From the IMG/VR virus record IMGVR_UViG_2740892427_000001: a stretch of 64,000 nucleotides of DNA; one strand, 5' to 3'. Positions 3,984-51,445 of the stretch are shown in pieces. The notes below the pieces were generated by a model. That model saw only the letters and a list, made by a program, of their open reading frames with translations, ran no database searches and was not told the DNA's origin. A program made the position numbers and the translations under genes. Within the stretch, counting starts at the first letter, position 1. Each line of letters opens with the position of its first letter. This DNA is from a virus (lineage: Duplodnaviria > Heunggongvirae > Uroviricota > Caudoviricetes).

Positions 3984-4086
3984 AATTGCACCATTAAGAA
4001 GTGATTTGTTTAATGGTGCAATTATTTCAAAAATGAAAAGGTACTAAATAGAAATAAACAGGCAATCCTTCAAATAAAGGCATTGG

Positions 4087-9449: not shown

Positions 9450-9525
9450 CTTCTTTCTCGATAGGTAAGTGATTACCTATTTTTGCATTTGATTTTATGT
9501 CTGGCAATCAAATAAAACGCGCCAG

Positions 9526-14451: not shown

Positions 14452-15321
14452 TTATTTTTTGATCATTCCGTACATTGCTGAGGCTTTAGCTTGCTCAACA
14501 AAGGAGGATAAATCGACATCACTATAGGTTGGAGACTTCAGAATCTTTCCATCGGAAATTCGAAAACCGATCATCTTATCGGTGCCATCAGCATGGCGGA
14601 ATCCCAGATCTGAAGAGTCGTATTTGCAGTTGGCCACAGCCTGGCGACGTTCCTCAACATCAGCAGGCCATAATTTTGTCATGTTAGACCGATGAATTTC
14701 GCCAACCAGCTCGACGACATTGATACCGAGGAAATCAGCCAGTCGATAAGTCATCATGCACGCCACATAGATTTTGTTCATTACACGGCGCAGTTCCTGA
14801 ATCAGCTCAGAATCCTTAACAGTCTTCTTCTCAAGTTTATCTGCCAGCTCTTCGAGCATACATGACGCCTCACGAGCTTCCTGAAATGGCATTGCCATAT
14901 CATCGAAAACAGTGTTACCGGGCACAAAAATTGTCTGCATAAAGCGATCAATGCTCTGTTCCTGCGTGTAATAGGTCATGCCGGTAGAAATACCACCTTT
15001 GATGGAGACCATCGTACCAACACCAACGTATAAAAAGTCGGCCATTGCATCCAGCAGTTGCTCAATATCCCCATTCATTGCGGCTGGAATACCTTCCACT
15101 ACAGCTTCTTCATGAATCAGGCTTGCACGGAGACGAAGCAGCTCTGGTGTCGGCATAACGCGTCTCGGATGCTGGAAGAGTTCATGAAACTGATCGACCA
15201 TCTTGTAAATACTTTCAGTGGCTACACCATGGCCTTCATGCAACTCATATGGTTCTGGCTTAAATCCAATGAGTCGATCGGTGGCAAGTTTCAGGTGGTC
15301 AGTCAGTTTGGTAAAGTTCAT
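14452..15321 (-). CDS. putative all-alpha NTP pyrophosphohydrolase (MazG/HisE-like)
   Basis: start moved from 15519 to ATG 15321 (RBS AAGGAA) to clear nrdB; EEAVVEG...DIEQLLDAMADFLYV acidic helix pattern; weak assignment. Confidence 0.35.
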   Translation of the reverse strand: MNFTKLTDHLKLATDRLIGFKPEPYELHEGHGVATESIYKMVDQFHELFQHPRRVMPTPELLRLRASLIHEEAVVEGIPAAMNGDIEQLLDAMADFLYVGVGTMVSIKGGISTGMTYYTQEQSIDRFMQTIFVPGNTVFDDMAMPFQEAREASCMLEELADKLEKKTVKDSELIQELRRVMNKIYVACMMTYRLADFLGINVVELVGEIHRSNMTKLWPADVEERRQAVANCKYDSSDLGFRHADGTDKMIGFRISDGKILKSPTYSDVDLSSFVEQAKASAMYGMIKK

Positions 15322-15398
15322 GCTAGTTTTGTTCCTTCTTAATTCTTGTGATCCATTGTGGCCCAGCGTTGCCAGGCCACATAATGCTTTGTATCGGT

Positions 15399-16541
15399 TT
15401 ACAGGTCTGCAAACTGGCTTAGAGAAGCCTTGTCCACGGTAGAATCGATCTGACCTACCAGATATGTGCTTTGCTCTGCCTCTTGTGGTGCAATTTGCAG
15501 TGTGTCGGTTAACAACCACTTGTTCATCCAGACCAGCGGATCAGTGGTAACTTCTGGAAATAAAGCCTTCAGGCCAAGACGATTCATAGCCAGATTGGTT
15601 CGGTATTTTACATAGGTCTTCAGAATATCCGCGTTTAAACCAATCATCGAACCGTCTTTGAAGAGATAGTCTGCCCAGTTCATTTCTTGTTCGGCGACTG
15701 ATTTCATGGTGTCGTAAATGACGTTTTCTTCATCAGCAGCAATCTCTTTCCACAATAAACCTTCGCGACCGGTACGCATGAAGCGGATCATGCGTTCAGT
15801 TCCTTCGCAATGCAGAGCTTCATCACGGGCAATAAAGCGCATAATTTTGGTGTTACCCTCAAGCAACTTCCGTTCGCCAAAGGCAAACGTACATGCAAAA
15901 CTTACATAGAAACGGATCGCCTCAAGCGCATTAATGGACACTAACGTGCGGAAAAGCTGACGGTGCAAAGGGTATGGCTCCCAGCCATATTCATTTACGT
16001 ACAGACGTTCAAACTCTTTCTCACCTAACGACTGGCGCTCGCAGGTCATCCCATAAAGCCTGTCATATTCAGCAGAGATACTGATCGCTCGGTTGATGAT
16101 TTCTTCATCCGTAACAATACCGTCAAAAACAATGCTCGGATCGTCCACCATGCCACGAATAATGTGGGTGTAGCTGCGGCTATGGATAGTCTCAGAGAAA
16201 GACCATGTTTCAACCCACGTTTCCAGTTCAGGAATAGAGATAAGCGGCAGCAGCGTTGCATTTGGGCTACGTCCCTGAACTGAATCGAGCAACGTTTGAT
16301 AACGGAGATTACTCAGGAAAATGTGGCGTTCGTGGTCCCGCAGCTTCGTATTGAAGTCGATGCGATCGCTCGAAATATCAACTTCTTCCGGCCGCCAGAA
16401 GAAAGACAATTGACGTTCAATCAACTTTTCAAAATCACGGTATTTTTGTTGATCGTAACGAGCCACGTTGACAGATTGTCCGAGGAACATAGGCTCTTTG
16501 GTTGCATCATTAGCACCCAAACGGAACGTTGAATATGACAT
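15399..16541 (-). CDS. nrdB: ribonucleotide reductase class Ia beta subunit
   Basis: 380 aa, close to enterobacterial NrdB in length and motifs ([13 protein letters not shown]-terminal tail). Confidence 0.9.
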
Positions 16542-16647
16542 GTGTTTTTCCTTTTTCTTTTTTGGTGCGTTTAAACAAGTTGTTATCTTATGTGTTTAAA
16601 CAAGGCTTACAAATCAAAGAGAAGGTGGGGATATCCCCCACCATATG

Positions 16648-18963
16648 TCAGATTTTGCAGGCTCCGTCGCACTCATCTTCTGGCTCGACGGCTACAGCTT
16701 GCGTCAGTGGATTCTGCGGTTCGTCGTCATCACGCTTTCCTGCCCCATCTCTGGTGTTGTGGTAGTAAAGCGTTTTAACTCCCATCTTGTAGGCGAGAAG
16801 CAAATCTGACAGTAGCGTCATCATTGGGACTTTATCGCCTTCAAAGCGAGAAGGGTCATAGTTGGTATTGGCTGAAATAGCCTGGTCAAAGAACTTCTGG
16901 ATGATCGCCACCTTTGTCAGATAGCCGCGGTTGTCCGGCATATCCCACAGGTATTCATACTGTTCCTTCAGTTTTTCAAACTCAGGCACGACCATCTTAA
17001 CGATGCCGTCCTTAGAAGATTTCACCGACACCGGGCCACGAGGCGGTTCGATGCCGTTGGTGGAATTAGTGATCTGGCTGGAAGTCTCGCATGGCATTTG
17101 TGCCGTCAGTGTGGAGTTGCGAAGGCCGTATTTTGCAATACGTTCACGCAGTTCTTCCCACGGCATCTTTAACTCAAAGTTGGTTTCGCCACTTTCGTCT
17201 AATGAAGAACGGTAATGGTCGATCGGCAACTGACCAATTGCGTACTTGGTCTGCTCAAACCAGTCACACTCACCTTTTGCTTCAGCAAGTCGGCAGCTGG
17301 CGTCAAGAAGGTAATACTGGATAGCTTCGAACGTTTCATGCACCAGTTTATTGCCAGCGGTATCAGAATAACGAACGCCATTCTTTGCCAGGTAATAAGC
17401 AAAGTTGGTTACACCAATTCCCAGGCTACGACGAGCTTTGGCAGGCACTTCGGCTGCCTCCATCGGATAGTCTTGATAATCCAGTAACGAATCCAGTGCA
17501 GCAACGGCATAGAACGCCACCTCTTTAAGAGACTCCAGTGAACGGATGGCTCCGAGGTTAAAAGCGGATAAAGTGCATAGCGCGATCTCACCGTTCGGGT
17601 CGTCGGTAAATGCCAGTGGACGGGTGGGTAGAGTGATCTCCATGCACAGGTTTGACTGGCGAACAGGTGCAAGAGCAGGAATGAAAGCGCCATGCTCGTT
17701 AATATGATCGACGTTCGCAATATAAATTCGGCCCGTGGACGCTCGTTCCTGCATCAGAGATGAGAACAGCTCAATGGCAGGTACTGACTTCTTGCGAATT
17801 GAATCATCGGCTTCGTATTTATGGTACAGCTTTTCAAACAGATCCTGGTCTGTGAAGAAGGCTTCGTACATATCAGGCACATCATGCGGGCTGAACAGAG
17901 TGATGTTCTCGCTTCTGACGAGTCGACGGTACATTAGACGGTTACTCATGACGCCGTAATCAAGATGGCGAACGCGGTTTTCATCAATACCACGGTTATT
18001 TTTCACCACCAGCAGACTTTCAACCTCAAGATGCCAAATCGGGTAAAACGCTGTTGCTGCGCCACCACGAACACCACCTTGCGAACAAGATTTAACAGCC
18101 GTCTGGAAATGCTTCAGGAATGGAATAACTCCGGTATGGGTGGCTTCACCATTGCGGATCTCGCTGCCCAGCGCACGGATACGGCCAAAACCAATACCAA
18201 TTCCAGCACGACGTGAAACGTAGTCGATAATTGCGGCTGAAGCTGCACTAATCCCTTTCAGACTATCGCCAGACTCAATCAGCACACAACTGGAGAACTG
18301 ACGGGTTGGAGTACGGACGCCGGCCATGATTGGTGTGGGCAGAGACAGTTTGAACGTACTTGTAACGTCATAGAAACCTTTGACCATCTCCATACGTGTT
18401 TTGCCAGCGCAGTCGTCTTCCCAATTCTGGAACAGACACATGCCTACCAGCATATAGATATGTTGCGGCCCCTCATGAATCTCACCAGTAACACGGTTTT
18501 GAACGAGGTATTTGCTTTGCAACTGCACCGTAGCTGCATAGCCAAAAAGATCGTCACGTTTAGGCTTAATGTAATTGCCGAGTTCTTCGATCTCTTCAAA
18601 TGAATAATGTGTCAGCAAATCCTTGTCATAAACGCCCTTGTTAACGTTCTTGACAATGTGTTGGTGGAAGTTCGGATAGTCGTAACGACCGAAGGCATCT
18701 TTGCGGATTTTAAAAATGTTCAGGCGGGCAGCCACCTGCGAGTAATTTGGTGCATCTGGTGAGATCAAATCAGCGGCAGATTTAACCAAAGCCTCATGCA
18801 ACTGGCTGGTGGTAATCCCATCAAAAATGCTGGCCGCAGCTCCCATTGCTACAGCGGATGCGCTTACACCACGAATGCCTTCTACGCCATACATTACGAC
18901 GCGGTTGTATTTTTCTTCGGATAACGGCTCTGTTTGGCCGTTACGTTTTACGATGCTTATCAT
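16648..18963 (-). CDS. nrdA: ribonucleotide reductase class Ia alpha subunit
   Basis: 771 aa; LVQNRVTGEI, PTRQFSSCVLIE, SNLCMEI, C-terminal ...CDGACKI. Confidence 0.95.
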   Translation of the reverse strand: MISIVKRNGQTEPLSEEKYNRVVMYGVEGIRGVSASAVAMGAAASIFDGITTSQLHEALVKSAADLISPDAPNYSQVAARLNIFKIRKDAFGRYDYPNFHQHIVKNVNKGVYDKDLLTHYSFEEIEELGNYIKPKRDDLFGYAATVQLQSKYLVQNRVTGEIHEGPQHIYMLVGMCLFQNWEDDCAGKTRMEMVKGFYDVTSTFKLSLPTPIMAGVRTPTRQFSSCVLIESGDSLKGISAASAAIIDYVSRRAGIGIGFGRIRALGSEIRNGEATHTGVIPFLKHFQTAVKSCSQGGVRGGAATAFYPIWHLEVESLLVVKNNRGIDENRVRHLDYGVMSNRLMYRRLVRSENITLFSPHDVPDMYEAFFTDQDLFEKLYHKYEADDSIRKKSVPAIELFSSLMQERASTGRIYIANVDHINEHGAFIPALAPVRQSNLCMEITLPTRPLAFTDDPNGEIALCTLSAFNLGAIRSLESLKEVAFYAVAALDSLLDYQDYPMEAAEVPAKARRSLGIGVTNFAYYLAKNGVRYSDTAGNKLVHETFEAIQYYLLDASCRLAEAKGECDWFEQTKYAIGQLPIDHYRSSLDESGETNFELKMPWEELRERIAKYGLRNSTLTAQMPCETSSQITNSTNGIEPPRGPVSVKSSKDGIVKMVVPEFEKLKEQYEYLWDMPDNRGYLTKVAIIQKFFDQAISANTNYDPSRFEGDKVPMMTLLSDLLLAYKMGVKTLYYHNTRDGAGKRDDDEPQNPLTQAVAVEPEDECDGACKI

Positions 18964-19002: not shown

Positions 19003-19036
19003 ATGTTAATAGATAAGCACTTACCTATCAATGAAA

Positions 19037-40600: not shown

Positions 40601-41174
40601 CGTTAATCTGGTCGTAGAATGGGGTAGGGTGCGGATAAACCACGCTATAGAAGTTGTCTTTCCCGCCCGCTGTAATCAGTGAGCTTATGATTTTTGCAAA
40701 ATCGTTGCGTTGGAACACGCTACCGATGTCGGAAGTGAGCAGGATGATGTTGCCTTTGGCATATGTAGAAACCAACTGTTCGAGCGAGAGACGCGGTACA
40801 AAGTAGAACTGTTCTCGTGTGTTGGCCACCGTCATTAGTTCGCAGATGTCGCGATATCCTTTCTCATTTTTAATTAGAGCGGTAAACGAGTAGTTACGTC
40901 CTCGCTCCAATGATTCCATACATCCCTTAGACTCTTTAGCAAGTTTAGCCCGGTGCTCGTATGTGGGATCATCAACGATGTTTAGTTTCACACCACAAAT
41001 AACCGCCATGTCGTCACCAGCGGCACGTTGTAGTGGAATAACGCTCGCAATATTCATGCTATCTGCTGAAATTACAGCGGTGTAGCCAGCTTCTCTGGCA
41101 ATCTTCACCGCGTTTTCTGCTTTTAGAGCCGACTCCCCAAGTGAGAAGTCAGTTCGAACCATCAGTGCTTTCAT
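37668..41174 (-). CDS. dnaE: DNA polymerase III alpha-type catalytic subunit (DnaE family)
   Basis: 1168 aa; N-terminal PHP-domain-like region, central GPGRGSSAGSLVAWCIGIT and PDxD motifs; length close to bacterial DnaE. Confidence 0.9.
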   Translation of the reverse strand: MKALMVRTDFSLGESALKAENAVKIAREAGYTAVISADSMNIASVIPLQRAAGDDMAVICGVKLNIVDDPTYEHRAKLAKESKGCMESLERGRNYSFTALIKNEKGYRDICELMTVANTREQFYFVPRLSLEQLVSTYAKGNIILLTSDIGSVFQRNDFAKIISSLITAGGKDNFYSVVYPHPTPFYDQINVRAMKVASALKIEPVAFYPAYYESIDDADIKDIAHMVTNNIKIDQPHRLRIPHQRDNAINGRRHLLEALKAFSVRMDVPVTAAMASTTQDSIIDACTWRWHELPPALPKMADDEPATLMKLAVAGLRKRLTTKEFGYTPPASENRVYVERLKYEMDTLTRLGFCGYFLMVRDLMNHSRETGIPVGPGRGSSAGSLVAWCIGITNVDPIRHGLLFERFINPERLDLPDADLDFSQARRHEVIEYLNERYGEDYVAGIPNFTYLGAASALRDTARIYGVESADMAVSKELKNVEDDSLPLEELREQLASLDKYATKYPDAFNAACKLQSLMRGFGRHAAGMIVAGVPLTERTPVERRGDARCIAFDKRYCEAMGLIKLDVLGLATLDLLDSAKRYIKESTGEDINLDAIPLDDRKVLDGFAAGYTQGVFQLESGPMRKLLKDLGGGIEPMSFKTVVATTALFRPGPIQSGMLDDYVSVAKGFMAPHSIHPRLEEVTRETNGVLLYQEQIMQSSRVLAGFSMAEADALRSAIGKKNMDKMKAIGSDFVERAQAGWVTLSLKNGGTVEVHKHAKLDCSDGKRRSYSEAISDGIDYVEIVSEQEGLSKEKAQEIWDAFEKFGGYAFNKSHSVAYSLISYQSMWLKTHYPAEFFAAALTILGEDKHQGLVKDALTYGIRVLPPDVNVSSNRIEIRTLEDGSQALYAPFSAVKGCSENGCQAIMRAREKVGGKFESVAQFDEAVEKRACNSRVRESLHKVGAFASIEPGSLPATDPERLRDQAELMGNLIIDAVKASRPFEMNPKRSAEINVLMTRMAAEMGLGEELIRPTIGIKPKIMIILDNANGNDARTGYFMENGYDDFKAKLLTVGDLRMGDLYVTGVCKKVKDKEKDYTKDEIGQFTDFMREEINLVRPTYILTCGSRSTALFNNKSKPSDLIGRKEYFPELDATVFYGFNPNILYFRPEEGERLEAILADIAETINK

Positions 41175-42685: not shown

Positions 42686-44794
42686 TCACTTTAAAATGAT
42701 ACGAGATAGTTCAGTAACTACAGATGAACCAAGACTATCAACGCTCGTTACCAGGGCATGATTTGAGTAAAATCTCTCCGGTGCGTCAGTCATGATGCCA
42801 ATTGCCATCAAATCAATGTCAGTCTGCGTTTCAATTTGCTTCGCAACCGAACGCAAATGAGCGTCAAAACCTCTCCCAACAGCCCACGGCTCGCCATCGC
42901 TCAGAACAAGCATGATCTTCCTGTCCTCCATGCGACCGGAAAATAACGATGCAAGGCTGGCTATGCTTTCACCATCCACGTTATTAAGAAGTGGGAATGT
43001 GTAGCCTACGCACCCCATACGTGAGCGAACTTCGCGAGAATTTACCTTTTCATTCCAATTTTTGATGATAGGTAGCATTAAAGATTCAAAGCGAGAGAAC
43101 TCATACTTGACAGCCTTAAGTTCTCCTGCCGCCATATGACTACCAAATGTAGTGAAGCCGGTGATAATGTTGGGAACATTTATTCGATCAAGGGCATCGG
43201 CGATGGTATATGCACTTGCAAGAGCCAATTGTATCGTTATACCCCTCATTGAACCTGATAAATCAATCACTTGTTGAACACAGGCGTTAACGGCTTTAGA
43301 TTCTTCTTTTTTACGAAACACGCGATCATCATTCATTGCTAATCTGTAGATACTAGAACCATGAATGCGCCCCCGACGCTGGCCCGGTATAAACTGAACT
43401 CTGTTTCTGCTTGCTATTGCTCGCTCCAGGTCTTTTGCCAGCGTCGACGAAACACCTGACGAAAGATGCTTTTCAATATATTTGTCGAAGAGCTGGTTGC
43501 CTTCAGGAACGATGCGATAGCGGCTGATTGGACATCCTCCTAAATCAATATCGGAGAATGTTTTAATAAGCCGTTTGATATGGGCTTCTGCCTGATCAAT
43601 CGAGCCGATGAAGTCGTATGAGCGATTGTATGGCCTGTATTCGCTTTTCGAGCTTTCTGTTAACTCGCTTTTAATCGTTTCGGATAGAGCATCTTCTGTC
43701 ATGCCTCCGACTTCATCTTCTATGCTATCCAGCTCCTCTAAAGCCTCTTCCAGACTCATTTTTGACGGAGTTGGGATATCTGAAGAGCCGTCTTCTGTCG
43801 TTTTTCTTTTTTCGTGGTCAGCGGTTAATGATTCTGACGCCGCGTTATCAGAAGCATCAGAATCTGATACCTCTTTATCATTTTCTGTATCATCGAATAT
43901 TGTTTCTGATGATTCAGAATTATCTGAATCATCACTGTTGTTATTATCATGTTTGTGCTTACTATGTGATTCTGATTTGATAGATTTGTGATTATCTAAC
44001 AATGAAGGTGTCTCATGATCTTCGTTGTCTTCATTGTTTTCTCCAGAGGCATCCGTCTGGTCAGCGTCAGAAGGATCGGAAGTTTTTCCCGGAGCTGACT
44101 CCTTACCTTTGCTTTCACTTTCAGTGTCTTTGAGGATCTTAGCTATGGTCGCAGCCACCTTTACACAATCCTCGGTGCAAGACATGTTACGCACGGCCAC
44201 ATCGATACCATGTTCTTTTAATAATGAAATTGGTTTCTCAATGACAGGCCAGTATTCATCCATGAAATCTACGAACGGTGCTTGGCCATCCCAGGCTCTT
44301 ACAACCGGACAGAGAAAGAAGTTTAGAAAAAGCGCGCGCTGATCTTTGCCACAATAAGCAATAGCCTCTGAAGCCTTTGGTTTAAAGACTTTTTCGATTA
44401 TAAGGCGCTGAGTTGCCATCAGATTACGTCTTGTTCCGTTAAAGACCTGACCCATTTTTCGCTCGATGAACACGTCTTCTAAGGCATTCCATAGCGACCA
44501 GGAAGGAACGCGTCCTTTTTCTCTCATTTTGTTGGACACACGAATATCGGTAAACAAAATGTGAGCAACCTCATGATCGAGAAATCCGCGCACAGCATTC
44601 ATCAATGCCGGTGTTGCGTTATCCGGGATTGATGGGATGTTTACGAGAATTGGCTCTCCATCATCGTTATAGCGTACATAAGCGTCGTCCCCTCGTTCTG
44701 CAACAGGGATGTTTTTACCTGAAAGGAGAGCGACTACTCGTTTTACACTGTCACGGAAGTCCTGAACCTCTTTGATGGAACGTTTTTTAGACAT
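42686..44794 (-). CDS. vWA-domain protein (CobT-like partner) with long acidic Ser/Asp-rich insert
   Basis: C-terminal MIDAS motif VIDLSGSM; ~170-aa low-complexity acidic region in the middle. Confidence 0.65.
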   Translation of the reverse strand: MSKKRSIKEVQDFRDSVKRVVALLSGKNIPVAERGDDAYVRYNDDGEPILVNIPSIPDNATPALMNAVRGFLDHEVAHILFTDIRVSNKMREKGRVPSWSLWNALEDVFIERKMGQVFNGTRRNLMATQRLIIEKVFKPKASEAIAYCGKDQRALFLNFFLCPVVRAWDGQAPFVDFMDEYWPVIEKPISLLKEHGIDVAVRNMSCTEDCVKVAATIAKILKDTESESKGKESAPGKTSDPSDADQTDASGENNEDNEDHETPSLLDNHKSIKSESHSKHKHDNNNSDDSDNSESSETIFDDTENDKEVSDSDASDNAASESLTADHEKRKTTEDGSSDIPTPSKMSLEEALEELDSIEDEVGGMTEDALSETIKSELTESSKSEYRPYNRSYDFIGSIDQAEAHIKRLIKTFSDIDLGGCPISRYRIVPEGNQLFDKYIEKHLSSGVSSTLAKDLERAIASRNRVQFIPGQRRGRIHGSSIYRLAMNDDRVFRKKEESKAVNACVQQVIDLSGSMRGITIQLALASAYTIADALDRINVPNIITGFTTFGSHMAAGELKAVKYEFSRFESLMLPIIKNWNEKVNSREVRSRMGCVGYTFPLLNNVDGESIASLASLFSGRMEDRKIMLVLSDGEPWAVGRGFDAHLRSVAKQIETQTDIDLMAIGIMTDAPERFYSNHALVTSVDSLGSSVVTELSRIILK

Positions 44795-44892
44795 GGCTAA
44801 TCCTTTGTTATGAAAACAAATTATTTACTAGTGTGTTTAATGTAGCACTGCGCGAACAGGGAACTAAGCCATTCGCGCAGGGAGAAGAGGGG

Positions 44893-45105
44893 TTAACAGA
44901 TTCTGACGGCTAAAGACCCGGAGCCGGTATTGAGAAGCGTGAAGCGTTTGTTGTTAAGTTCGAATATAAATCCAGTTGTGTCATTCACACCAACCTGAAT
45001 CTGCTCATTCGGTAGATCGGTGAGGATGTCAGCTACACACTCATCAACTAATTTCTGTACGTGTCCGATCTCAAGAGCGATTAGGCTGGAAATAGTGGTG
45101 TTCAT
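44893..45105 (-). CDS. hypothetical protein (70 aa)
   Basis: ORF divergent from the HTH regulator gene. Confidence 0.35.
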   Translation of the reverse strand: MNTTISSLIALEIGHVQKLVDECVADILTDLPNEQIQVGVNDTTGFIFELNNKRFTLLNTGSGSLAVRIC

Positions 45106-45282
45106 TCAATCAGTCCATTCTAACTTATACTATGGTAAGGAATACTACTAAAATTTGTATCAATACTGAATACATTCATATCATATGCAAGTTGATTTTC
45201 TTACCTATTTTTGGCTAATTTTTCTCCGTGCAATGGCCTTTAACCGGTCTTTTAAGTGCCTATCGAAAAAAATGATAATAGC

Positions 45283-45328
45283 TTTACAACCCTAACCTTT
45301 GATGTAATATCGGTAAGCACTTACCAGA
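45283..45328 (+). promoter_or_regulatory. sigma70-like promoter TTTACA-16 bp-TAATAT overlapped by the palindrome ATCGGTAAGCACTTACCAGA
   Basis: -35 at 45283-45288, -10 at 45305-45310, palindrome at 45309-45328, ATG 45357. Confidence 0.5.
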
Positions 45329-45356
45329 GAGAATTGAACGCGCAAAGGTTGTAACC

Positions 45357-45743
45357 ATGTCTGATAACAAGATTGAATTTATAGAAAGTCGCTACGCTGC
45401 TTTTATCGCAGGGTTGATTGAATCCTCACCTATGAGCCAGGCCCAGATAGCCAAAACAATTGGGTATAAAAACGCCAACAACCTTTCTTTAATTAAAAGC
45501 GGCAAAATTCCTTTGCCTATCGATAAGGTTCGTCCGCTGGCGCTGGCACTGGGTATTGAGCCAAGTCGTCTTATGATGATGGTGCTGGAAGAACGCCAAC
45601 CCGAACTCGCAGCATTTTTATACAAAGAAGGCACTGCTCCTCTTAACGAGGACGAAAAACAGGTTCTTGCTGCATATAACGAGCGATTCGGTAAAGAGAA
45701 AGGCGCATCACAAAAGGTTGTTGAGGCCATAAAGTCTCTATGA
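45357..45743 (+). CDS. HTH-domain transcriptional regulator (XRE/Cro-cI-like)
   Basis: SQAQIAKTIGYKNANNLSLIKSGK helix-turn-helix. Confidence 0.6.
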   Translation: MSDNKIEFIESRYAAFIAGLIESSPMSQAQIAKTIGYKNANNLSLIKSGKIPLPIDKVRPLALALGIEPSRLMMMVLEERQPELAAFLYKEGTAPLNEDEKQVLAAYNERFGKEKGASQKVVEAIKSL

Positions 45744-46841
45744 AAAATTTACACGAATAAGCTCTGTTGATAGACGATCTCCCTTAAATTTGTGGTCAAT
45801 TTCGTCTAAATCCGGTTGCTCTACGATTGATGCGATGTACGTCGAGAAACTTTCTAAGGCGTCTCGCATCTCGTCCATATAATCGTGCCGGTCGTAGACC
45901 CGATCTATCCCCTCAAGACTGTGGTTCATGATTTTACGTGATACCTCCTGGCTTATGCCTAATGCTGGGAAGTAACTACGCGCAGTACGGCGCAAATCTC
46001 GGGGTGTAAATGGCTCAAGCTCCATCAGTTCTGGTCGTTCCAGAATACGACGTAATGCCTGGGCTATTGCCACTTTAGACATAGGAAGGTCTTTCCCGAT
46101 TTTTTTATTCGAAGGCACGAGCCACTGGCTGTCTTTACCATATTCGAACAACTCTTCAATACAAGTGCGCATTAATGAGCTTAAAGGCAGAGAATGCTCA
46201 CGGGCAGATTTGTTCCTCTTGCCTTGATTCCAAACCCCACGCTTAAGATTGAACTCACTTTTTTTAGCCCGCAGTACTTCGTCAGGTCGTCTTGCGGATA
46301 CAAGACATAGCCTGGCCGCCCATTTTGTACCAGCACACACATTGAAGTAGTCCCATATATTCCAGAACACCCATACCTCTGCGTCGGTCAGCTTCCGCTC
46401 GCGAGGTGTGGGCTTTGCGCCACCGGCAACTTTGTTAAGTGACATATCGTTTAACGGTGACACGTCTATCATCCCCTGGAAGGCGCACCAGCTAAGGAAC
46501 TGCTTCATCAGAGAGAAAACGCGGCGACCCATAACAATTTTGCCATCCAGTATTAGTGGGTTGACCAGTTGGTTCACCATGAACCTATTAATGTCACTTA
46601 CTTTTACATCGGCAATGTGCGGCAAAACATGTATCAAAATACAATGAACAGCGATCTCTGGCCGACGTCTGGTTATCAGCAGAGATAAGCGAGTGAATAA
46701 CATGAATGCGTCCGAGAATCTCATGTCATTGCTGACCTGGGAGATCGTAACGGCCTGCATTTGAGATGCTCTTTCGAGATACTCTATCGCCTCTTTTGAG
46801 GTGTTCTCCGCAGCGCGTGCTCTGTCAAAGCTATTTTTCAT
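45738..46841 (-). CDS. tyrosine recombinase / integrase family protein
   Basis: C-terminal catalytic region TPRDLRRTARS...NHSLEGIDRVYDRHDY (R...HxxR...Y pattern). Confidence 0.75.
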   Translation of the reverse strand: MKNSFDRARAAENTSKEAIEYLERASQMQAVTISQVSNDMRFSDAFMLFTRLSLLITRRRPEIAVHCILIHVLPHIADVKVSDINRFMVNQLVNPLILDGKIVMGRRVFSLMKQFLSWCAFQGMIDVSPLNDMSLNKVAGGAKPTPRERKLTDAEVWVFWNIWDYFNVCAGTKWAARLCLVSARRPDEVLRAKKSEFNLKRGVWNQGKRNKSAREHSLPLSSLMRTCIEELFEYGKDSQWLVPSNKKIGKDLPMSKVAIAQALRRILERPELMELEPFTPRDLRRTARSYFPALGISQEVSRKIMNHSLEGIDRVYDRHDYMDEMRDALESFSTYIASIVEQPDLDEIDHKFKGDRLSTELIRVNFS

Positions 46842-46937
46842 ATGACAATCACCGAGTTACGCCGATGTACTGTATAAGTAAACAGTATATTAGGCATAGA
46901 TTCTTATAGGATCAAGAGTAAAAGTAACTCATTTTTA

Positions 46938-46976
46938 CTAATGATTCCATACATAGTAGGTATGGAATCATTTTGA
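46938..46976. promoter_or_regulatory. 12-bp inverted repeat AATGATTCCATA-(n13)-TATGGAATCATT upstream of the recombinase gene
   Basis: perfect arms; the arm sequence recurs at 48711-48725 and 49737-49751. Confidence 0.45.
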
Positions 46977-47051
46977 CGTTGTTTTTTGAATTTTAAGGGA
47001 AACGGGAGTGAGTTTGGTGGGAATAAAAACGGCTCCTGTGAGCCGTTAAAA

Positions 47052-47297
47052 TCAGAGGGTGCTGACGTATGCAGCCAGTTCTGTGTATCCGCCAATCGGT
47101 TGGCCATCGATCAGCACTTGGGGGATAGTCTCTACCGGTTTACCAACAATTTCACTTAGTTTTTCCTTGTCGATACCGGCAGTGGTGATGTCGATGTACT
47201 CATAATCACCGTAGCCATGTCCCTTTAGTTGCTTCGCCAGCTCGACCGCACGTTTGCAGTATGAGCAGTTATCTCGTCCGTAGATAGTGATCGTCAT
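47052..47297 (-). CDS. glutaredoxin-like protein (NrdH/NrdC-like redoxin)
   Basis: IYGRDNCSYCKRA CxxC motif in an 81-aa thioredoxin-fold-sized protein. Confidence 0.75.
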   Translation of the reverse strand: MTITIYGRDNCSYCKRAVELAKQLKGHGYGDYEYIDITTAGIDKEKLSEIVGKPVETIPQVLIDGQPIGGYTELAAYVSTL

Positions 47298-47644
47298 TGC
47301 TTTGCCTCATGCCACTTTTGCTTCAGGAGATAGCCTTCCAGGGGCCAGATTTGATCGATAGCATCTTTTCGAGCGTACTCGCGACCAACATCAAAGTTGA
47401 AGATTTCTGGTCTTACGCACGCAGATTTTCCCGTTACGGTATATCCATTTTTGAGAACCATAACGCAGAACGTTAAGAGTTTTAACGACTCATGACCTTT
47501 GTCGATATCTGTTTTTGAATTGTAAACAGAGATGAAGTTATCCCCGTGGCTGGCATCATATGCAGTGAAATAATGTTCACTTTGAATGAGTTGTTCAATG
47601 TGTTCAGGGGTGACTTTTAGTGGTGTGTTATCTTTGCTGGTCAT
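47294..47644 (-). CDS. hypothetical protein (116 aa)
   Basis: ORF, ATGA coupling. Confidence 0.5.
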   Translation of the reverse strand: MTSKDNTPLKVTPEHIEQLIQSEHYFTAYDASHGDNFISVYNSKTDIDKGHESLKLLTFCVMVLKNGYTVTGKSACVRPEIFNFDVGREYARKDAIDQIWPLEGYLLKQKWHEAKQ

Positions 47645-47690
47645 TATTTCTTCCTACAAAGTTCGTAGACTTGACTCTTTCAGTTGCAAA

Positions 47691-47710
47691 AAAGGGGCCG
47701 AAGCCCCTTT
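47691..47710. terminator. bidirectional terminator AAAGGGGCcgaaGCCCCTTT
   Basis: perfect 8-bp stem, A-run upstream, T-run downstream. Confidence 0.7.
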
Positions 47711-47784
47711 GAATTTTGCGCTGAAAAAAAGTGTTGCTAGGATGTTAGCAAGCTATGGTTAAGAACGTCTGCCGTAATTGTCTA

Positions 47785-47864
47785 TCACAGCGTTGAGCGG
47801 TCTGGTTTATGTTAGCGGAGTCTTAATCTGGGTGATTAAAAGGCCAAACCGCTCAACGCTGTGT
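47785..47864 (-). other. long stem-loop (~20-bp stem, 38-nt loop) immediately 3' of tRNA-Ser
   Basis: arms atcacagcgttgagcggtctgg / ccaaaccgctcaacgctgtg; the single mismatch is G-U-compatible only in the minus-strand transcript. Confidence 0.5.
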
Positions 47865-47865
47865 T

Positions 47866-47952
47866 TGGCGGAGAGTAATGGAATCGAACCATCATCGCTT
47901 GCGCAATGGGACGGTTTTCAAGACCGCTTGAGCACCATGCTCCCTACTCTCC
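47866..47952 (-). tRNA. tRNA-Ser (anticodon UGA), class II with long variable arm, encoded CCA
   Basis: manual fold: acceptor GGAGAGT/ACTCTCC, anticodon loop CUUGAAA, T-loop GGTTCGATTCC. Confidence 0.7.
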
Positions 47953-48050
47953 AGCTATTGTGATGGTCGGTGCTGAACTCCGACACAGGGTTGTAGCAAG
48001 CCCCGCAAAGCGCGCACTACTGTAGTTGCGGCACATCAGCCTGTGCATTC

Positions 48051-48133
48051 ATCACAACGGTAAGATCACTACCTTTCGACCAGTCATTGTGCACATGAAC
48101 GACGATTAACCGTAATGATCTTATCGTTGTGTT
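48051..48133 (-). other. imperfect long stem-loop in tRNA spacer
   Basis: arms atcacaacggtaagatcact / aatgatcttatcgttgtg. Confidence 0.35.
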
Positions 48134-48180
48134 GTGAAGCCAGATGCTTATCTTCTGGTTGCTTCAAAGAGCTGCACTTC

Positions 48181-48271
48181 CTCACAACGGTAAGAGCACT
48201 GGTCTGACTCTATCGATTTACGGGCTTGTGGGTCAGTATCGCCGATTCGCCCAATGCTCTTACCTGTTGTG
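48181..48271 (-). other. imperfect long stem-loop immediately 3' of tRNA-Thr
   Basis: arms ctcacaacggtaagagcactgg / ccaatgctcttacctgttgtg. Confidence 0.4.
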
Positions 48272-48272
48272 T

Positions 48273-48348
48273 TGGTGCCGGTTAACGGGATCGAACCGCT
48301 GACATCCTGCTTACAAGGCAGACGCTCTACCAACTGAGCTAAACCGGC
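48273..48348 (-). tRNA. tRNA-Thr (anticodon UGU), encoded CCA
   Basis: GCCGGTTTAGCTCAGTTGGTAGAGC...CUUGUAA...GGTTCGATCCCGTTAACCGGCACCA. Confidence 0.8.
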
Positions 48349-48352
48349 AATT

Positions 48353-48439
48353 TGGTGGGGAGTGATGGAGTCGAACCACCCGAGTCGCAATGACAGTAGA
48401 TTTACAGTCTACCCCGCTGCCCCTACGGACTAACTCCCC
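48353..48439 (-). tRNA. tRNA-Tyr (anticodon GUA), long variable arm, encoded CCA
   Basis: anticodon arm GTAGACTGTAAATCTAC, T-loop GGTTCGACTCC, acceptor GGGGAGT/ACTCCCC. Confidence 0.8.
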
Positions 48440-48444
48440 TAAAT

Positions 48445-48519
48445 TGGCGATGGTGGGTGGATTCGAACCACCGACCAGTTGGTTAACAGCCAACTGCTCT
48501 ACCGCTGAGCTACACCATC
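48445..48519 (-). tRNA. tRNA-Asn (anticodon GUU), encoded CCA
   Basis: GATGGTGTAGCTCAGCGGTAGAGC...GTTGGCTGTTAACCAAC...GGTTCGAATCCACC. Confidence 0.8.
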
Positions 48520-48782
48520 AATTCAGCACTGCCAGTATTTATTACTCAACAGTGCCAATCGCGACGGTTTAGTTTCTGCCAGGAAACGCACCGCTACTTG
48601 CACTTTTCGTTAGTGCCAGACGCTTTCGACTTCGCTCAATAGTAGAAGGCAAAATCTTTAAGTAGATGATGTTTCTGAGGACAGCACCTACTTTGTAATT
48701 TATACAATGTGATGTATGGAATCATTTGTTGTGAAAACAGGCACCAATGGCAACAGTGGTTAAACCTACACAACAATCCTGT

Positions 48783-48909
48783 CTTCACAACGTTGAGGCC
48801 ACTACTCCGATTGAATGTTTGCCCAACATGTTACATATCAACGCTCGCCGGTATCTCTGTGAATAGAACCTTAGAATTGATAAAAATGTAATGGCCTCAA
48901 CGTTGTGTG
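48783..48909 (-). other. long stem-loop (18-bp stem, ~86-nt loop) upstream of the tRNA cluster
   Basis: arms cttcacaacgttgaggccact / aatggcctcaacgttgtgtg; mismatch G-U-compatible on the minus strand. Confidence 0.45.
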
Positions 48910-49069
48910 CTGGCTAACCATACCAGCCGGGCTACGTCGCCGCTTTTTAACCCAGTATAAACGACATAATTGAACAAAATGACGTAACAGGATGGGCGGT
49001 CAGTGGCTAAGAATCCGGGAGTCATATGGAGTTGAAAATATACCAACCGCCCATTCTGTTACTTCATCG

Positions 49070-49107
49070 GATAGGGCATAGTGGTTTGGCTGTCTATGCC
49101 CTATCCT
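49070..49107. other. perfect 13-bp stem-loop GGATAGGGCATAG-n12-CTATGCCCTATCC
   Basis: read directly. Confidence 0.5.
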
Positions 49108-49311
49108 GCGTTCTGCAATCACACTCGCTCAGTGTGTCCCATTTCGGTAACGAGGCTGGAAACTGACCTCGCTGGTGTTTGGCTTATTAGGCTACTGCCA
49201 GATAGACTTCTTCGTTTGCACTTGTATTTAAGTTCAAACAGTCGCGTCTCAACGAAAACAAAGTCATCTTATACATAAAAGATAAGTAAGTAAATACTTA
49301 TCATGATGTTT

Positions 49312-49602
49312 CTATTCGGTTGTGACTTTTTTGATCAAGGCCACTCTACGACTAGGTGTTCTTGTGATGGTGGCAGTGAATCGTTTCGCCTGGATAGTAA
49401 TGGTTTCGTTCTCCTTAAGTTGCCCGTAGCGAGTTTCCACCAGGGTGCCAAGACGCCACAGACCATCATCGATACGTTTATGACTAGCAAATTTAATCAG
49501 CAACAGTTTTACGACTAACTGACCTACGTAAAAGGCGAATGCGACTCCGGTCGCTAAGAAATAGGTGGCCAACCACCATTCCCAAGAAGTTAAATTGCTC
49601 AT
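49312..49602 (-). CDS. membrane-anchored hypothetical protein (96 aa)
   Basis: N-terminal TM segment. Confidence 0.4.
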   Translation of the reverse strand: MSNLTSWEWWLATYFLATGVAFAFYVGQLVVKLLLIKFASHKRIDDGLWRLGTLVETRYGQLKENETITIQAKRFTATITRTPSRRVALIKKVTTE

Positions 49603-49751
49603 TTTTTCACCTTTGTTTCATGAACTACCCGATACACACGCTTTCCGATGCACAGTGTTTTGGTTTTAAGTTCCTGCTTAATTAAATCACGACAGATGCC
49701 GAAGCCGATAAGGAAGCCACCCATAAAAGCTAATGAGATGTATGGAATCAT
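49599..49751 (-). CDS. small membrane peptide (50 aa), paralog of 49947..50126
   Basis: MIPYISLAFMGGFLIGFGICRDL...GKRVYRVVHET; ATG lies inside the repeated ATGATTCCATACATC motif. Confidence 0.3.
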   Translation of the reverse strand: MIPYISLAFMGGFLIGFGICRDLIKQELKTKTLCIGKRVYRVVHETKVKK

Positions 49752-49963
49752 TTTAACACTCCTGATTCTACTAATTGCTGTAGCAATACTTTCCCTTTAT
49801 CAGTTAACTGGTAGTTGGCCGAACACCACGTTTCAGAAACGTTTGCAACCAACCCTAAACGCTCTAACTTAGCTCGCGTTTTAGGCTTCCAGTACTCAGG
49901 GAACTCCGGCCACTTACTGATTTCATGAAGCGTTTCCTTCTCCCGTTTACTTAATACGATCAT
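49748..49963 (-). CDS. hypothetical protein (71 aa)
   Basis: ORF with AAGGAG RBS. Confidence 0.45.
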   Translation of the reverse strand: MIVLSKREKETLHEISKWPEFPEYWKPKTRAKLERLGLVANVSETWCSANYQLTDKGKVLLQQLVESGVLK

Positions 49964-50126
49964 CCTTAATCTCCTTCAGGGTGTTGGTTATTTCTACAAT
50001 GCGATAAATACGACCGCGTCTTTCTATAACACCGCTTTTAATGTAGTCATTGATGCAACTGGACATCACCACAATACCTATGAAAAAACCAACTGCTAAA
50101 AATGCAATCATCCAGCCGAGCATCAT
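49947..50126 (-). CDS. small membrane peptide (59 aa)
   Basis: MMLGWMIAFLAVGFFIGIVVM...RGRIYRIVEIT; ATGA coupling to the ligase stop. Confidence 0.3.
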   Translation of the reverse strand: MMLGWMIAFLAVGFFIGIVVMSSCINDYIKSGVIERRGRIYRIVEITNTLKEIKDDRIK

Positions 50127-51445
50127 TCTTTATCTCCGATTCGATCTTCTGTATCGCGTAAGCAACGCGGCCATTTCAGTCGGGGGTGGCGTAAGCTGCC
50201 ATCCGGTGTTTTCTCGTGACAATGAACCTCAACAATACGACCACGGTACTTCTCTTTGTTGTTCCAGATCTCGTCCAGATATTTATGCTTAATACCGCTC
50301 GCACGAACGATGACGCCGTTTTCAAGACGAATAACAATTTTTCCAAGCGTGTTGGCAAAACCAGAGTCCGGATCGCCCGGCTCAAAATCGATAATTTCAC
50401 CATCTTCTGAATCTTCGTCTTTTAACTTCCACCAGCTGCGGGTACGTTTAAACTCGTAAACAGAGTTCGGATCTTTGCCCATCTCCCCTTCTTCGTTATC
50501 GTCCAGGCGTTTCATGAAGCGTTCGATGAAGTCTTCGTGGCTATGGATGATATAGAACGGATGTAGGTGAATGTCTTGCGCGTAGTCTTCACTGCGATCG
50601 TTTTTGAACAACGCCACGAGAATAGCCAGGCGCTCTTTCAGCTTCATACCTGTCTTTGCATACTCTTTGGATTTAGCCTGTGCCCGCCATTCCGGTAGGA
50701 AAAAGTCGAAAACATGATAAATAGCGCCAATTGCCTGCACGTTCTTTTTGCGCAATGCAGATACGGACTGGTTAAATGAACCGGCTGTTCCTTCACCATC
50801 GAAGAAGATGTGTTTGTGGCCTGAAAGTTTGCCTAATTCGAGCATTGCTGGCTTTAGGTGATCGAGAGACGTGATTGGATTACCAGTACGAGAAAGGAAG
50901 TTAACCTCTTCCTCGTCAACAATAACCTCGCAAATTACTCGCAAACCATCGAGCTTAAGACTGCCAATCATCGGCCATTTTGCTTTAGGATTTGGCTTGA
51001 AGGGGTATTTGTCGCCTTTTTCTTTATACGGTGACGCCAGCTGCACCTCGAATTTCGGAATGGGATTTTCAAAAACCTTGTTGCATAGGCTAATCCCAAC
51101 ACCTGCTTTCGGGTCTTTTAAGAGGAAACGACGGAACACGTCCTGCCCATCGGCGCACATTGACGCCACGATAGACTCAACAGCTGCTATTGCTGCGTTC
51201 CCCGTCAGCTCGCGAGAGGCCAGCTTATTCAGTACATCAATGGCTTTTTCGTCACTTGGGACGGACTCACTAAGCGGCTCTGCCACTTTGTATTTCTTTA
51301 CCCCAAAACGGATGAAAGGGTTGAGCATCAATGAAACCATGCTTTGTTCAAAGTCATCCATGTTGGCCAATGCCTCTTTTTTTGCATTGGTTCCCATAGC
51401 TTTCATTTCGTCCAGCTTATGCTTAAGTGCGATCAACTTTTTCAT
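50123..51445 (-). CDS. ATP-dependent DNA ligase
   Basis: adenylation motif I MIGSLKLDGLRVI (KxDG) and downstream nucleotidyltransferase motifs. Confidence 0.85.
   Translation of the reverse strand: MKKLIALKHKLDEMKAMGTNAKKEALANMDDFEQSMVSLMLNPFIRFGVKKYKVAEPLSESVPSDEKAIDVLNKLASRELTGNAAIAAVESIVASMCADGQDVFRRFLLKDPKAGVGISLCNKVFENPIPKFEVQLASPYKEKGDKYPFKPNPKAKWPMIGSLKLDGLRVICEVIVDEEEVNFLSRTGNPITSLDHLKPAMLELGKLSGHKHIFFDGEGTAGSFNQSVSALRKKNVQAIGAIYHVFDFFLPEWRAQAKSKEYAKTGMKLKERLAILVALFKNDRSEDYAQDIHLHPFYIIHSHEDFIERFMKRLDDNEEGEMGKDPNSVYEFKRTRSWWKLKDEDSEDGEIIDFEPGDPDSGFANTLGKIVIRLENGVIVRASGIKHKYLDEIWNNKEKYRGRIVEVHCHEKTPDGSLRHPRLKWPRCLRDTEDRIGDKE

Follow-up and report, generated by a model that had tools for sequence, protein, structure and literature searches.

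A conserved inverted repeat beside the recombinase gene of SSU5-type phage-plasmids as a candidate lox-like multimer-resolution site

The 64,000-nt stretch of viral DNA analyzed here (the window; IMG/VR record IMGVR_UViG_2740892427_000001) is an SSU5-type phage-plasmid. The region under study shares 98% identity with Escherichia phage Cyrano, an SSU5-type phage-plasmid resident in E. coli LF82, and 74% with Klebsiella phage-plasmids. Full genome context was taken from the E. coli plasmid CP057560 (109.9 kb), whose recombinase is identical to that of the window. In this region, a tyrosine recombinase gene (int) converges on a gene for a helix-turn-helix (HTH) regulator, as the initial annotation had described, and the 3′ ends of the two genes overlap by 6 nt. 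A conserved 70-aa open reading frame (ORF) divergent from the HTH gene completes the module and remains beside both genes even in a 34-kb Photorhabdus plasmid. Upstream of int lies a perfect inverted repeat, the palindrome with which this study is concerned. Coordinates are collected in Table 1.

The palindrome comprises two 13-bp arms around a 7-bp spacer, 33 bp in all. The initial annotation had rightly recognized a perfect inverted repeat, but had extended it to 46938–46976 and given it a 13-nt spacer. Other parsings are 12-nt arms with a 9-nt spacer or, with one mismatch, a 16/1/16 arrangement. Folded as a DNA hairpin, the palindrome reaches −11.1 kcal/mol (z = −6.7), a strength that is unexceptional, as it ranks seventh among the 19 short-range inverted repeats of the window. 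Its special status rests on recurrence and comparative data, not on the hairpin. Five copies of the 12-mer ATGATTCCATAC are present in the window, where 0.17 would be expected, and none of 100 shuffles reached five. Two of these copies are the arms of the palindrome; the solitary ones are at 40910 (+), 48714 (−), and 49740 (−).

The palindrome is closely linked to int. Pattern scans for the two arms that left the 7-bp spacer free matched 7 genome contigs and 101 viral contigs, and an int homologue adjoins the palindrome in 111 of the 114 sequences found by motif, the other three lying at locus edges. To counter pattern bias, seven distant homologues (44–59% identity) were picked by protein similarity alone, and every one of them has a 12–13-bp inverted repeat with a 7-bp spacer 20–110 bp upstream of int. 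K. pneumoniae CP055187 (Int 59% identical) carries TGTGATTCCATAC-CTATAGA-GTATGGAATCACA at this place, and the megaplasmids of Pantoea vagans and P. ananatis (49%) carry TGTGACTCCAGAC-N7-GTCTGGAGTCACA. The arms upstream of int read TGACTCCAGAC in Rahnella, Xenorhabdus, and Providencia, and Photorhabdus has a mixed intermediate with one arm of each type. Scanning for the second arm type yielded 8 further loci, 7 of them with an int homologue. The change from ATGATTCCATAC to TGACTCCAGAC affects both halves together while the geometry stays constant, and therefore the arms covary symmetrically. Of the arrangements expected for a simple recombination site (inverted arms of 11–14 bp, spacer of 6–8 bp), each lineage examined has the 13-7-13 form.

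Megaplasmids of Pantoea and Rahnella retain the palindrome although they lack a nearby HTH gene, which ties it to Int rather than to the HTH protein. This bears on one reading in the initial annotation, that the palindrome is the operator of the neighboring HTH repressor. Their proximity and the conservation of the int-HTH-70-aa module would suit such a role; persistence without the HTH gene does not, and the HTH promoter bears a palindrome of its own. That promoter is sigma70-like and stands as annotated, with the dispersed palindrome directly after it, and the two form a conservation island in a relative of 74% overall identity. Related palindromes of the form ATAGGTAAGnnCTTACCTAT occur upstream of three early operons in CP057560 (nrdA, an adenine methylase, and the operon downstream of a DUF4942 gene; window 2282, 9464, and 19012). 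The dispersed palindromes are probably the operator set of the putative HTH repressor. They bear no relation to the int palindrome, whose motif is absent from the HTH promoter. We thus regard an HTH operator at int as scarcely credible. Expression of the HTH gene in the lysogen was 10-fold above the prophage background (PMC9928086).

Pfam assigned Int a catalytic domain (PF00589, E = 3e-10) and a weak central domain, with no match to the arm-binding domain PF13356. This domain is present in the nearest relatives outside the family, the P4-type integrases (≤34% identity). The catalytic residues of the tyrosine recombinase superfamily follow in order: R185, K211, R281 at the His-II position, R284, H307, and Y316. 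In a 45-sequence alignment reaching homologues of 24% identity, R185, R284, and Y316 were invariant, and K211 and H307 were conserved in at least 90%. An AlphaFold model of Int (predicted local distance difference test score, 86; predicted template modeling score, 0.78) has the two-domain fold, core-binding plus catalytic, and Foldseek gave a probability of 1.0 to lambda Int, XerA, XerH, Tn1549 Int, IntI, and Cre. The best solved match was lambda Int residues 75–356 on COC′ core DNA, followed by XerA, Tn1549 Int, XerH, and IntI. The Foldseek E value to Cre was ~0.02, versus 1e-7 to lambda Int, and a phmmer search of Int against all PDB sequences, Cre included, found no match at E ≤ 1. Given the lack of PF13356 and the fold match to lambda Int, Int is a lambda/P4-lineage enzyme reduced to the two domains that read the core site. 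Neither an arm-binding domain nor arm-type sites were found; the solitary copies repeat the core-arm sequence itself and are therefore not a distinct arm-type motif. Int would thus act like Cre without being a Cre homologue at the family level.

The sole zero-mismatch match to the LexA (SOS) box in the window is located downstream of the putative int promoter, ahead of the int start codon. In 95 of 111 loci, CTGT-N8-ACAG recurs at a distance of ~70 nt from the palindrome, with the inner 8 nt varying. CP057560 has just one strong box besides the int-linked one, and a 111-kb K. pneumoniae plasmid has none besides it; no box was found in the clade with TGACTCCAGAC arms. The proposed promoter matches 8 of 12 positions (the scanner cut-off being 9), its −10 element abuts the LexA box, and a GATCAA element is conserved in the left flanks. 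By its conserved, promoter-overlapping box, int is a predicted member of the LexA regulon. If LexA represses this promoter, recombinase supply should rise in the SOS response. The box, unseen in the initial annotation, lends indirect support to the label of a switch region given there.

Published expression data bear on this prediction. In RNA-seq of LF82, Cyrano int rose from log2 5.6 in lysogeny broth (LB) to 10.3 in macrophages at 6 h, or ~20-fold (PMC9928086, S1 Table), and the authors describe the macrophage environment as SOS-inducing. The int, HTH, and 70-aa genes (CYRAN_44 to CYRAN_46) all reached log2 ~10–10.8 in macrophages at 6 h, and CobT, the AAA ATPase, and dnaE of Cyrano stayed low in the same data (PMC9928086). 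The difference in int between LB and macrophages agrees with LexA control. A single SOS-driven transcript may run antisense through the repressor gene; we found no statement on the strandedness of the RNA-seq. A minus-strand terminator-like hairpin lies within the HTH gene at 45501–45517.

The spacer is far more variable than the arms. Oriented to int, it reads ATAGTAG in 39 loci, TTAATAG in 28, CTACCAA in 19, and CTTACAA in 9, with eight rarer forms, giving at least 12 variants. In one polarity, the consensus is TTAnTAG; ~68 loci have it directed away from int and ~36 toward int. Two plasmids, L055 and L002, are nearly identical and share both flanks; they differ only in the spacer, which is inverted in situ (ATAGTAG in L055, CTACTAT in L002), and such flips suggest small inversions across the 13-bp arms. 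A second near-identical pair with an in-situ spacer inversion is L010 and L011. Such drift and flipping would be expected of the spacer in a site whose sole recombination partner is its own copy, as in dimer resolution; an attP, which needs a fixed attB, does not fit.

The distribution of the system also disfavors integration. Among 5426 complete E. coli genomes, int was present in 248 and the palindrome in 252, or roughly 1 in 20, and no copy was chromosomal (0 of 249 int places; 0 of 504 palindrome matches, counting both strands per site). Integrated copies, for which the initial annotation had proposed to look, were thus not found in these genomes. The palindrome occurs once per replicon. 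PLSDB holds 1082 plasmids with an int homologue, 990 of which are non-mobilizable, mainly from Klebsiella, Escherichia, Enterobacter, Pantoea, Yersinia, and Salmonella; the recombinase system is thus carried by ~1000 sequenced plasmids of Klebsiella, Salmonella, Yersinia pestis, Enterobacter, and others. An attP-type site that integrates the phage-plasmid into a chromosome or another replicon would accord with the annotation of Int as an integrase and with its descent from P4-type integrases. Set against this are the empty chromosomes, the incompatibility of a variable, flipping spacer with a fixed attB overlap, the missing arm-binding domain, and two large cointegrate plasmids whose fusion points lie elsewhere than the palindrome. 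We consider an attP highly improbable and rejected the class of integrative attP × attB integrases for this system.

The need for a resolution system can be argued from CP057560. This plasmid codes for a RecA-like recombinase, and dimers should therefore form. With generous mismatch limits, we found no XerCD cer/dif-like site in this complete 110-kb relative, and no other site-specific recombinase is annotated in it. A fork trap of the Ter/dif type was considered and dismissed, as the cumulative guanine-cytosine skew declines steadily over the plasmid with no turn at the palindrome.

We therefore favor, with a probability of about 0.6, the interpretation that the palindrome is a lox-like multimer-resolution site of a plasmid-restricted, SOS-controlled tyrosine recombinase. 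The int linkage over 44–100% identity, the symmetric covariation of the arms, and the 13-7-13 geometry support the earlier proposal of a recombination site; of its two forms, multimer resolution fits and integration does not, in view of one site per plasmid and no chromosomal copy in the 5426 E. coli genomes. As read from the sequence, the site would have a 7-bp crossover region flanked by two 13-bp binding arms in inverted orientation, as in loxP or the lambda COC′ core, each arm being bound by one Int monomer. Directly repeated sites on a plasmid dimer would synapse as an Int tetramer, Tyr316 would cut where the arms meet the 7-bp spacer, and strands exchanged via a Holliday junction would give back monomers. 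The system would then serve to resolve multimers and keep the plasmid prophage stably inherited, and not to integrate it into a chromosome. If true, this would explain how low-copy 110-kb phage-plasmids that encode their own RecA-like recombinase are kept monomeric, and it would couple recombinase supply to the SOS response. It would also provide two natural and distinct 13-7-13 specificities, those of the ATGATTCCATAC and TGACTCCAGAC arms, as possible Cre-independent tools for genome engineering.

Several known systems are related to the one proposed. Like Cre/loxP of P1, it has a single tyrosine recombinase, no arm-type sites, 13-bp inverted arms, and a short asymmetric spacer; both are borne by plasmid prophages, have the site close to the recombinase gene, and presumably resolve dimers. 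Unlike Cre/loxP, it has an Int without detectable sequence similarity to Cre, a spacer of 7 bp instead of 8, a LexA-controlled promoter by prediction, and solitary half-sites, and it is known here from sequence alone. The lambda and P4-type integrases provide the nearest fold (core-binding and catalytic domains) and the nearest sequence relatives (P4-type), and the lambda COC′ core has a 7-bp overlap, equal to the 7-bp spacer of the window. They differ in that Int lacks PF13356 and that no arm-type sites, attB, or integrated copies were found. XerCD at dif/cer and ResD/rfsF of F resolve multimers by tyrosine recombinases at a single short site, as proposed here. In contrast to XerCD at dif/cer, the window has one plasmid-encoded recombinase and symmetric arms, with no cer-like accessory region found. 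Our literature search found no paper describing the palindrome site, and a full-text search with the arm sequence gave only unrelated primer matches. Systems of this kind are known as such; in the literature searched, no description turned up of the family, its pair of target specificities, its predicted LexA control, or the oriented half-sites.

Table 1. Features of the int region and related elements, in window coordinates.
Feature	Position	Strand	Remarks
S1, solitary 15-mer ATGATTCCATACATC	40910-40924	+	antisense in dnaE, codons 85-89, variable loop
Conserved ORF, 70 aa (phrog_2627)	44893-45105	-	divergent from HTH gene
HTH promoter, TTTACA-16-TAATAT	45283-45310	+	sigma70-like
Operator-like palindrome GGTAAGCACTTACC	45312-45325	+	directly after HTH promoter
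Operator-like palindrome set, (ATA)GGTAAGnnCTTACC(TAT)	45312-45325, 2282-2295, 9464-9477, 19012-19025		dispersed
HTH (Xre-like) regulator gene, 128 aa	45357-45743	+	annotated as putative repressor in Cyrano
int, tyrosine recombinase, 367 aa	45738-46841	-	Pfam PF00589
Degenerate arm copy TTGATTCCAAAC	46224-46235	+	antisense in int, codons VWNQ
LexA (SOS) box TACTGTATAAGTAAACAGTA, 20-mer	46868-46887	.	between putative int promoter and int start codon
Putative int promoter	46887-46915	-	-35 TTGATC 46915-46910, 17-nt spacer, -10 TAATAT 46892-46887; read from sequence
Core palindrome AATGATTCCATAC-ATAGTAG-GTATGGAATCATT	46940-46972	.	13-7-13, 33 bp, perfect inverted repeat
Palindrome arm 1, AATGATTCCATAC, 13 bp	46940-46952	.	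read from sequence
Palindrome spacer ATAGTAG, 7 bp	46953-46959	.	read from sequence
Palindrome arm 2, GTATGGAATCATT, 13 bp	46960-46972	.	read from sequence
Semi-conserved 24-nt extension, ..GG....TTTTTT.AAATCTGA	46973-46996	+	side of palindrome away from int
Intrinsic terminator, glutaredoxin operon	47028-47047	-	far edge of cargo slot
S2, solitary 15-mer ATGATTCCATACATC	48711-48725	-	non-coding stretch upstream of tRNA cluster
S3, solitary 15-mer ATGATTCCATACATC	49737-49751	-	first five codons (MIPYI) of 50-aa gene 49599-49751

Several observations weigh against a lox-like resolution site. The loci found by motif are skewed toward intact arms. Cre/lox-type systems have no solitary half-sites, and the model leaves those of the window unaccounted for. 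The 24-nt extension and the cargo hotspot beside the palindrome, described below, hint at more than a minimal site. The His-II position is occupied by Arg281 in the family consensus. Conserved arms with a free spacer would also be the pattern of a dimeric operator, and the Pantoea palindrome lies ~20 nt from the int start, which makes autoregulation plausible.

The main rival is that Int, perhaps as a descendant without catalytic activity, recombines nothing and instead regulates transcription, its own or that of the region, by binding the palindrome and the 15-mers. An operator role for Int itself is possible and may coexist with recombination; as the whole explanation we find it unlikely. 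The consistent placement 20–110 bp upstream of int, in Pantoea nearly at the start codon, and the replacement of His-II by Arg are what such an operator would lead one to expect, and a DNA-binding regulator suits the solitary copies better than a recombinase does. However, the invariance or near-invariance of Tyr316, both Arg, Lys211, and His307 down to 24% identity is hard to explain without catalysis. The 13-7-13 arrangement is also the geometry of a recombinase core site, and in the window the palindrome sits 24 nt upstream of the putative −35 element and does not cover the promoter.

The initial annotation had reported that one arm recurs at 48711–48725 and 49737–49751, and both minus-strand copies (S2 and S3) are indeed present. 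A third solitary copy inside dnaE (S1) had been overlooked. All three repeat a 15-mer, and a degenerate copy lies within int, matching 11 of 12 positions and then ATC in lineages whose Int is 82–87% identical to that of the window. The DnaE loop at S1 varies (GCMESLERGR here, ETQLPVNR in Providencia), and therefore protein constraint does not explain this copy. S2 is a 15-nt conserved island in otherwise unalignable flanks, and S3 overlaps the stop codon of the upstream gene. The ATC that follows the arm, which lay outside the search pattern, has a frequency of 0.96–0.97 at S1–S3 and 0.85 at the copy within int, versus 0.55–0.85 in the flanks. No second, degenerate arm was found at the solitary sites, the consensus from +8 to +20 being unlike an arm.

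The solitary copies are also oriented. Their ATAC-ATC end is directed at the palindrome in every copy and every lineage, which by chance would occur in ~2–6% of cases given four to six independent positions. In two complete genomes, the motif is present only in the palindrome and in two or three solitary copies, and all copies in the E. coli plasmid are within 9.5 kb of int. GTG replaces ATG at the start of both palindrome arms and of the solitary copy in the K. pneumoniae plasmid, a covariation that weakly favors a shared reader. No solitary copy was found in two 21-kb loci and eight viral loci of the TGACTCCAGAC clade. Since both are absent there, the half-sites and the LexA box are taken to be derived features of the SSU5/pKpn/pMT1-type clade. 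Most simply, the three or four solitary 15-mers would be extra binding sites for Int monomers, and their conserved orientation raises the question of what role a simple recombinase has away from its core site.

The initial annotation had also suggested that the recurring arm marks small ORFs beginning with MIPY, possibly a duplicated gene family. This applies to S3, which begins a real 50-aa gene with a full-length match to phrog_6302. It does not apply to S2, which falls on an internal ATG of an unconserved ORF, nor to S1 and the copy within int, which are conserved and antisense to their host genes. A broader form of the idea, a family of small genes or leader peptides (MIPYI...) or else an RNA hairpin or terminator in place of a DNA-binding site, gains from the ATG or GTG and the MIPYI codons retained at every solitary copy, from the many mini-ORFs of 6–7 codons, and from the stable hairpin. 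It is contradicted by the antisense copies and the lack of conservation at S2, and the peptide differs in the other clade while both arms are still symmetric. The T-run begins 9 nt beyond the palindrome stem and does not adjoin it. On balance, this explanation is very improbable.

One-arm sites next to a 7-bp spacer and accessory arm copies have precedents in the Rci/sfx shufflon and in TnpI/IRS. Those systems differ from the window, where the solitary copies are 0.7–6 kb from the core and only ATC is conserved beyond the arm. We rejected shufflon-like inversion or deletion between motif copies, as blastn of 18 kb of the window against the 114 loci gave 0 strand-discordant segments. We also rejected the solitary sites as mosaic or cassette boundaries, since homology is continuous through S2 and S3 in most lineages.

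A more ambitious proposal would join the palindrome and the oriented half-sites into one SOS-gated system that goes beyond dimer resolution. Release of LexA would fire the int promoter, the transcript running antisense through the repressor into the 70-aa gene would help to flip the lysis-lysogeny switch, and Int bound at half-sites would form polar accessory or barrier elements, or partners for rare exchanges that feed the cargo slot. This is a speculative extension that we think unlikely to hold as a whole.

The cargo slot lies on the side of the palindrome away from int, where a semi-conserved 24-nt extension precedes DNA of highly diverse content. In 38 dissimilar right flanks, position-wise information falls to ~0 beyond +24, and homology with relatives ends there. 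Among 109 loci, the right flanks form 29 clusters versus 4 for the left flanks on the int side. No integration host factor consensus is present beside the palindrome. A candidate outward promoter into the slot was discarded, because its TTGAAA −35-like element is semi-conserved but the −10 position is not. In the window, the slot (46973–47071), bounded by the palindrome and the glutaredoxin terminator, is empty. Its cargo in relatives includes an unannotated gene, toxin-antitoxin pairs, a colicin-type DNase with its immunity gene, and an AraC-like regulator, among others. Counterparts of the slot are L001 8174–9071, L126 7416–8444, and L125 6884–9666, and the toxin modules in relatives include YafO and a ParE/Phd pair with the colicin-type DNase and immunity gene. 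The Cyrano slot gene, CYRAN_43, was expressed 723-fold above background (PMC9928086).

These features recall integrons, in which a LexA-repressed recombinase promoter and variable, expressed cargo likewise stand beside the site. An SOS-induced Int might insert cargo at the palindrome, leaving half-sites as the hybrid-site boundaries of past insertions. LexA control of int as for intI, the hypervariable and highly expressed slot, and the half-sites directed at the palindrome, an orientation expected if circles with a half-site had entered a full site, are all in keeping with this. Unlike integrons, the window lacks both attC-like sites and a cassette array. At the far edge of the cargo, neither a further full site nor a half-site was ever seen, and with one palindrome per replicon and no repeated site bounding the cargo, an integron-like mechanism is unsupported. 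Furthermore, an essential gene runs uninterrupted through S1, a gene begins at S3, the backbone is collinear across S2 and S3 in most lineages, and the spacers of the half-sites differ from those of the palindromes. We judge integron-like capture very unlikely. Conserved grx, gp49, and tRNA islands divide the variable DNA into several slots, and homologous recombination in the conserved flanks is enough to account for cargo exchange.

Some further features of the window and its relatives were recorded. Four tRNA genes (Ser, Thr, Tyr, and Asn) at 47866–48519 were the only passing Rfam matches in 44000–51000; a tmRNA-like match in the same scan was far under threshold. The tRNA set differs among close relatives, as Cyrano has no Tyr and one Klebsiella relative has Asn only. 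The ~790 nt of non-coding DNA upstream of the tRNAs contain tRNA-like remnants and a perfect 13-bp inverted repeat (49069–49106). At 49599–50126, two small membrane-protein genes (50 and 59 aa) encode a common transmembrane segment followed by a G(K/R)xxYR(V/I)V-type motif, and these shared features make the two proteins look like paralogues. The longest perfect short-range palindrome of the window is a 16-bp inverted repeat with a 12-nt spacer at 3982–4025 (ATAATTGCACCATTAA ... TTAATGGTGCAATTAT). Finally, the Xenorhabdus phage-plasmid L125 has a LAGLIDADG_3 domain in a CobS-like AAA ATPase gene (14481–16802), which suggests an intein or a homing-endonuclease insertion that the E. coli relatives lack.

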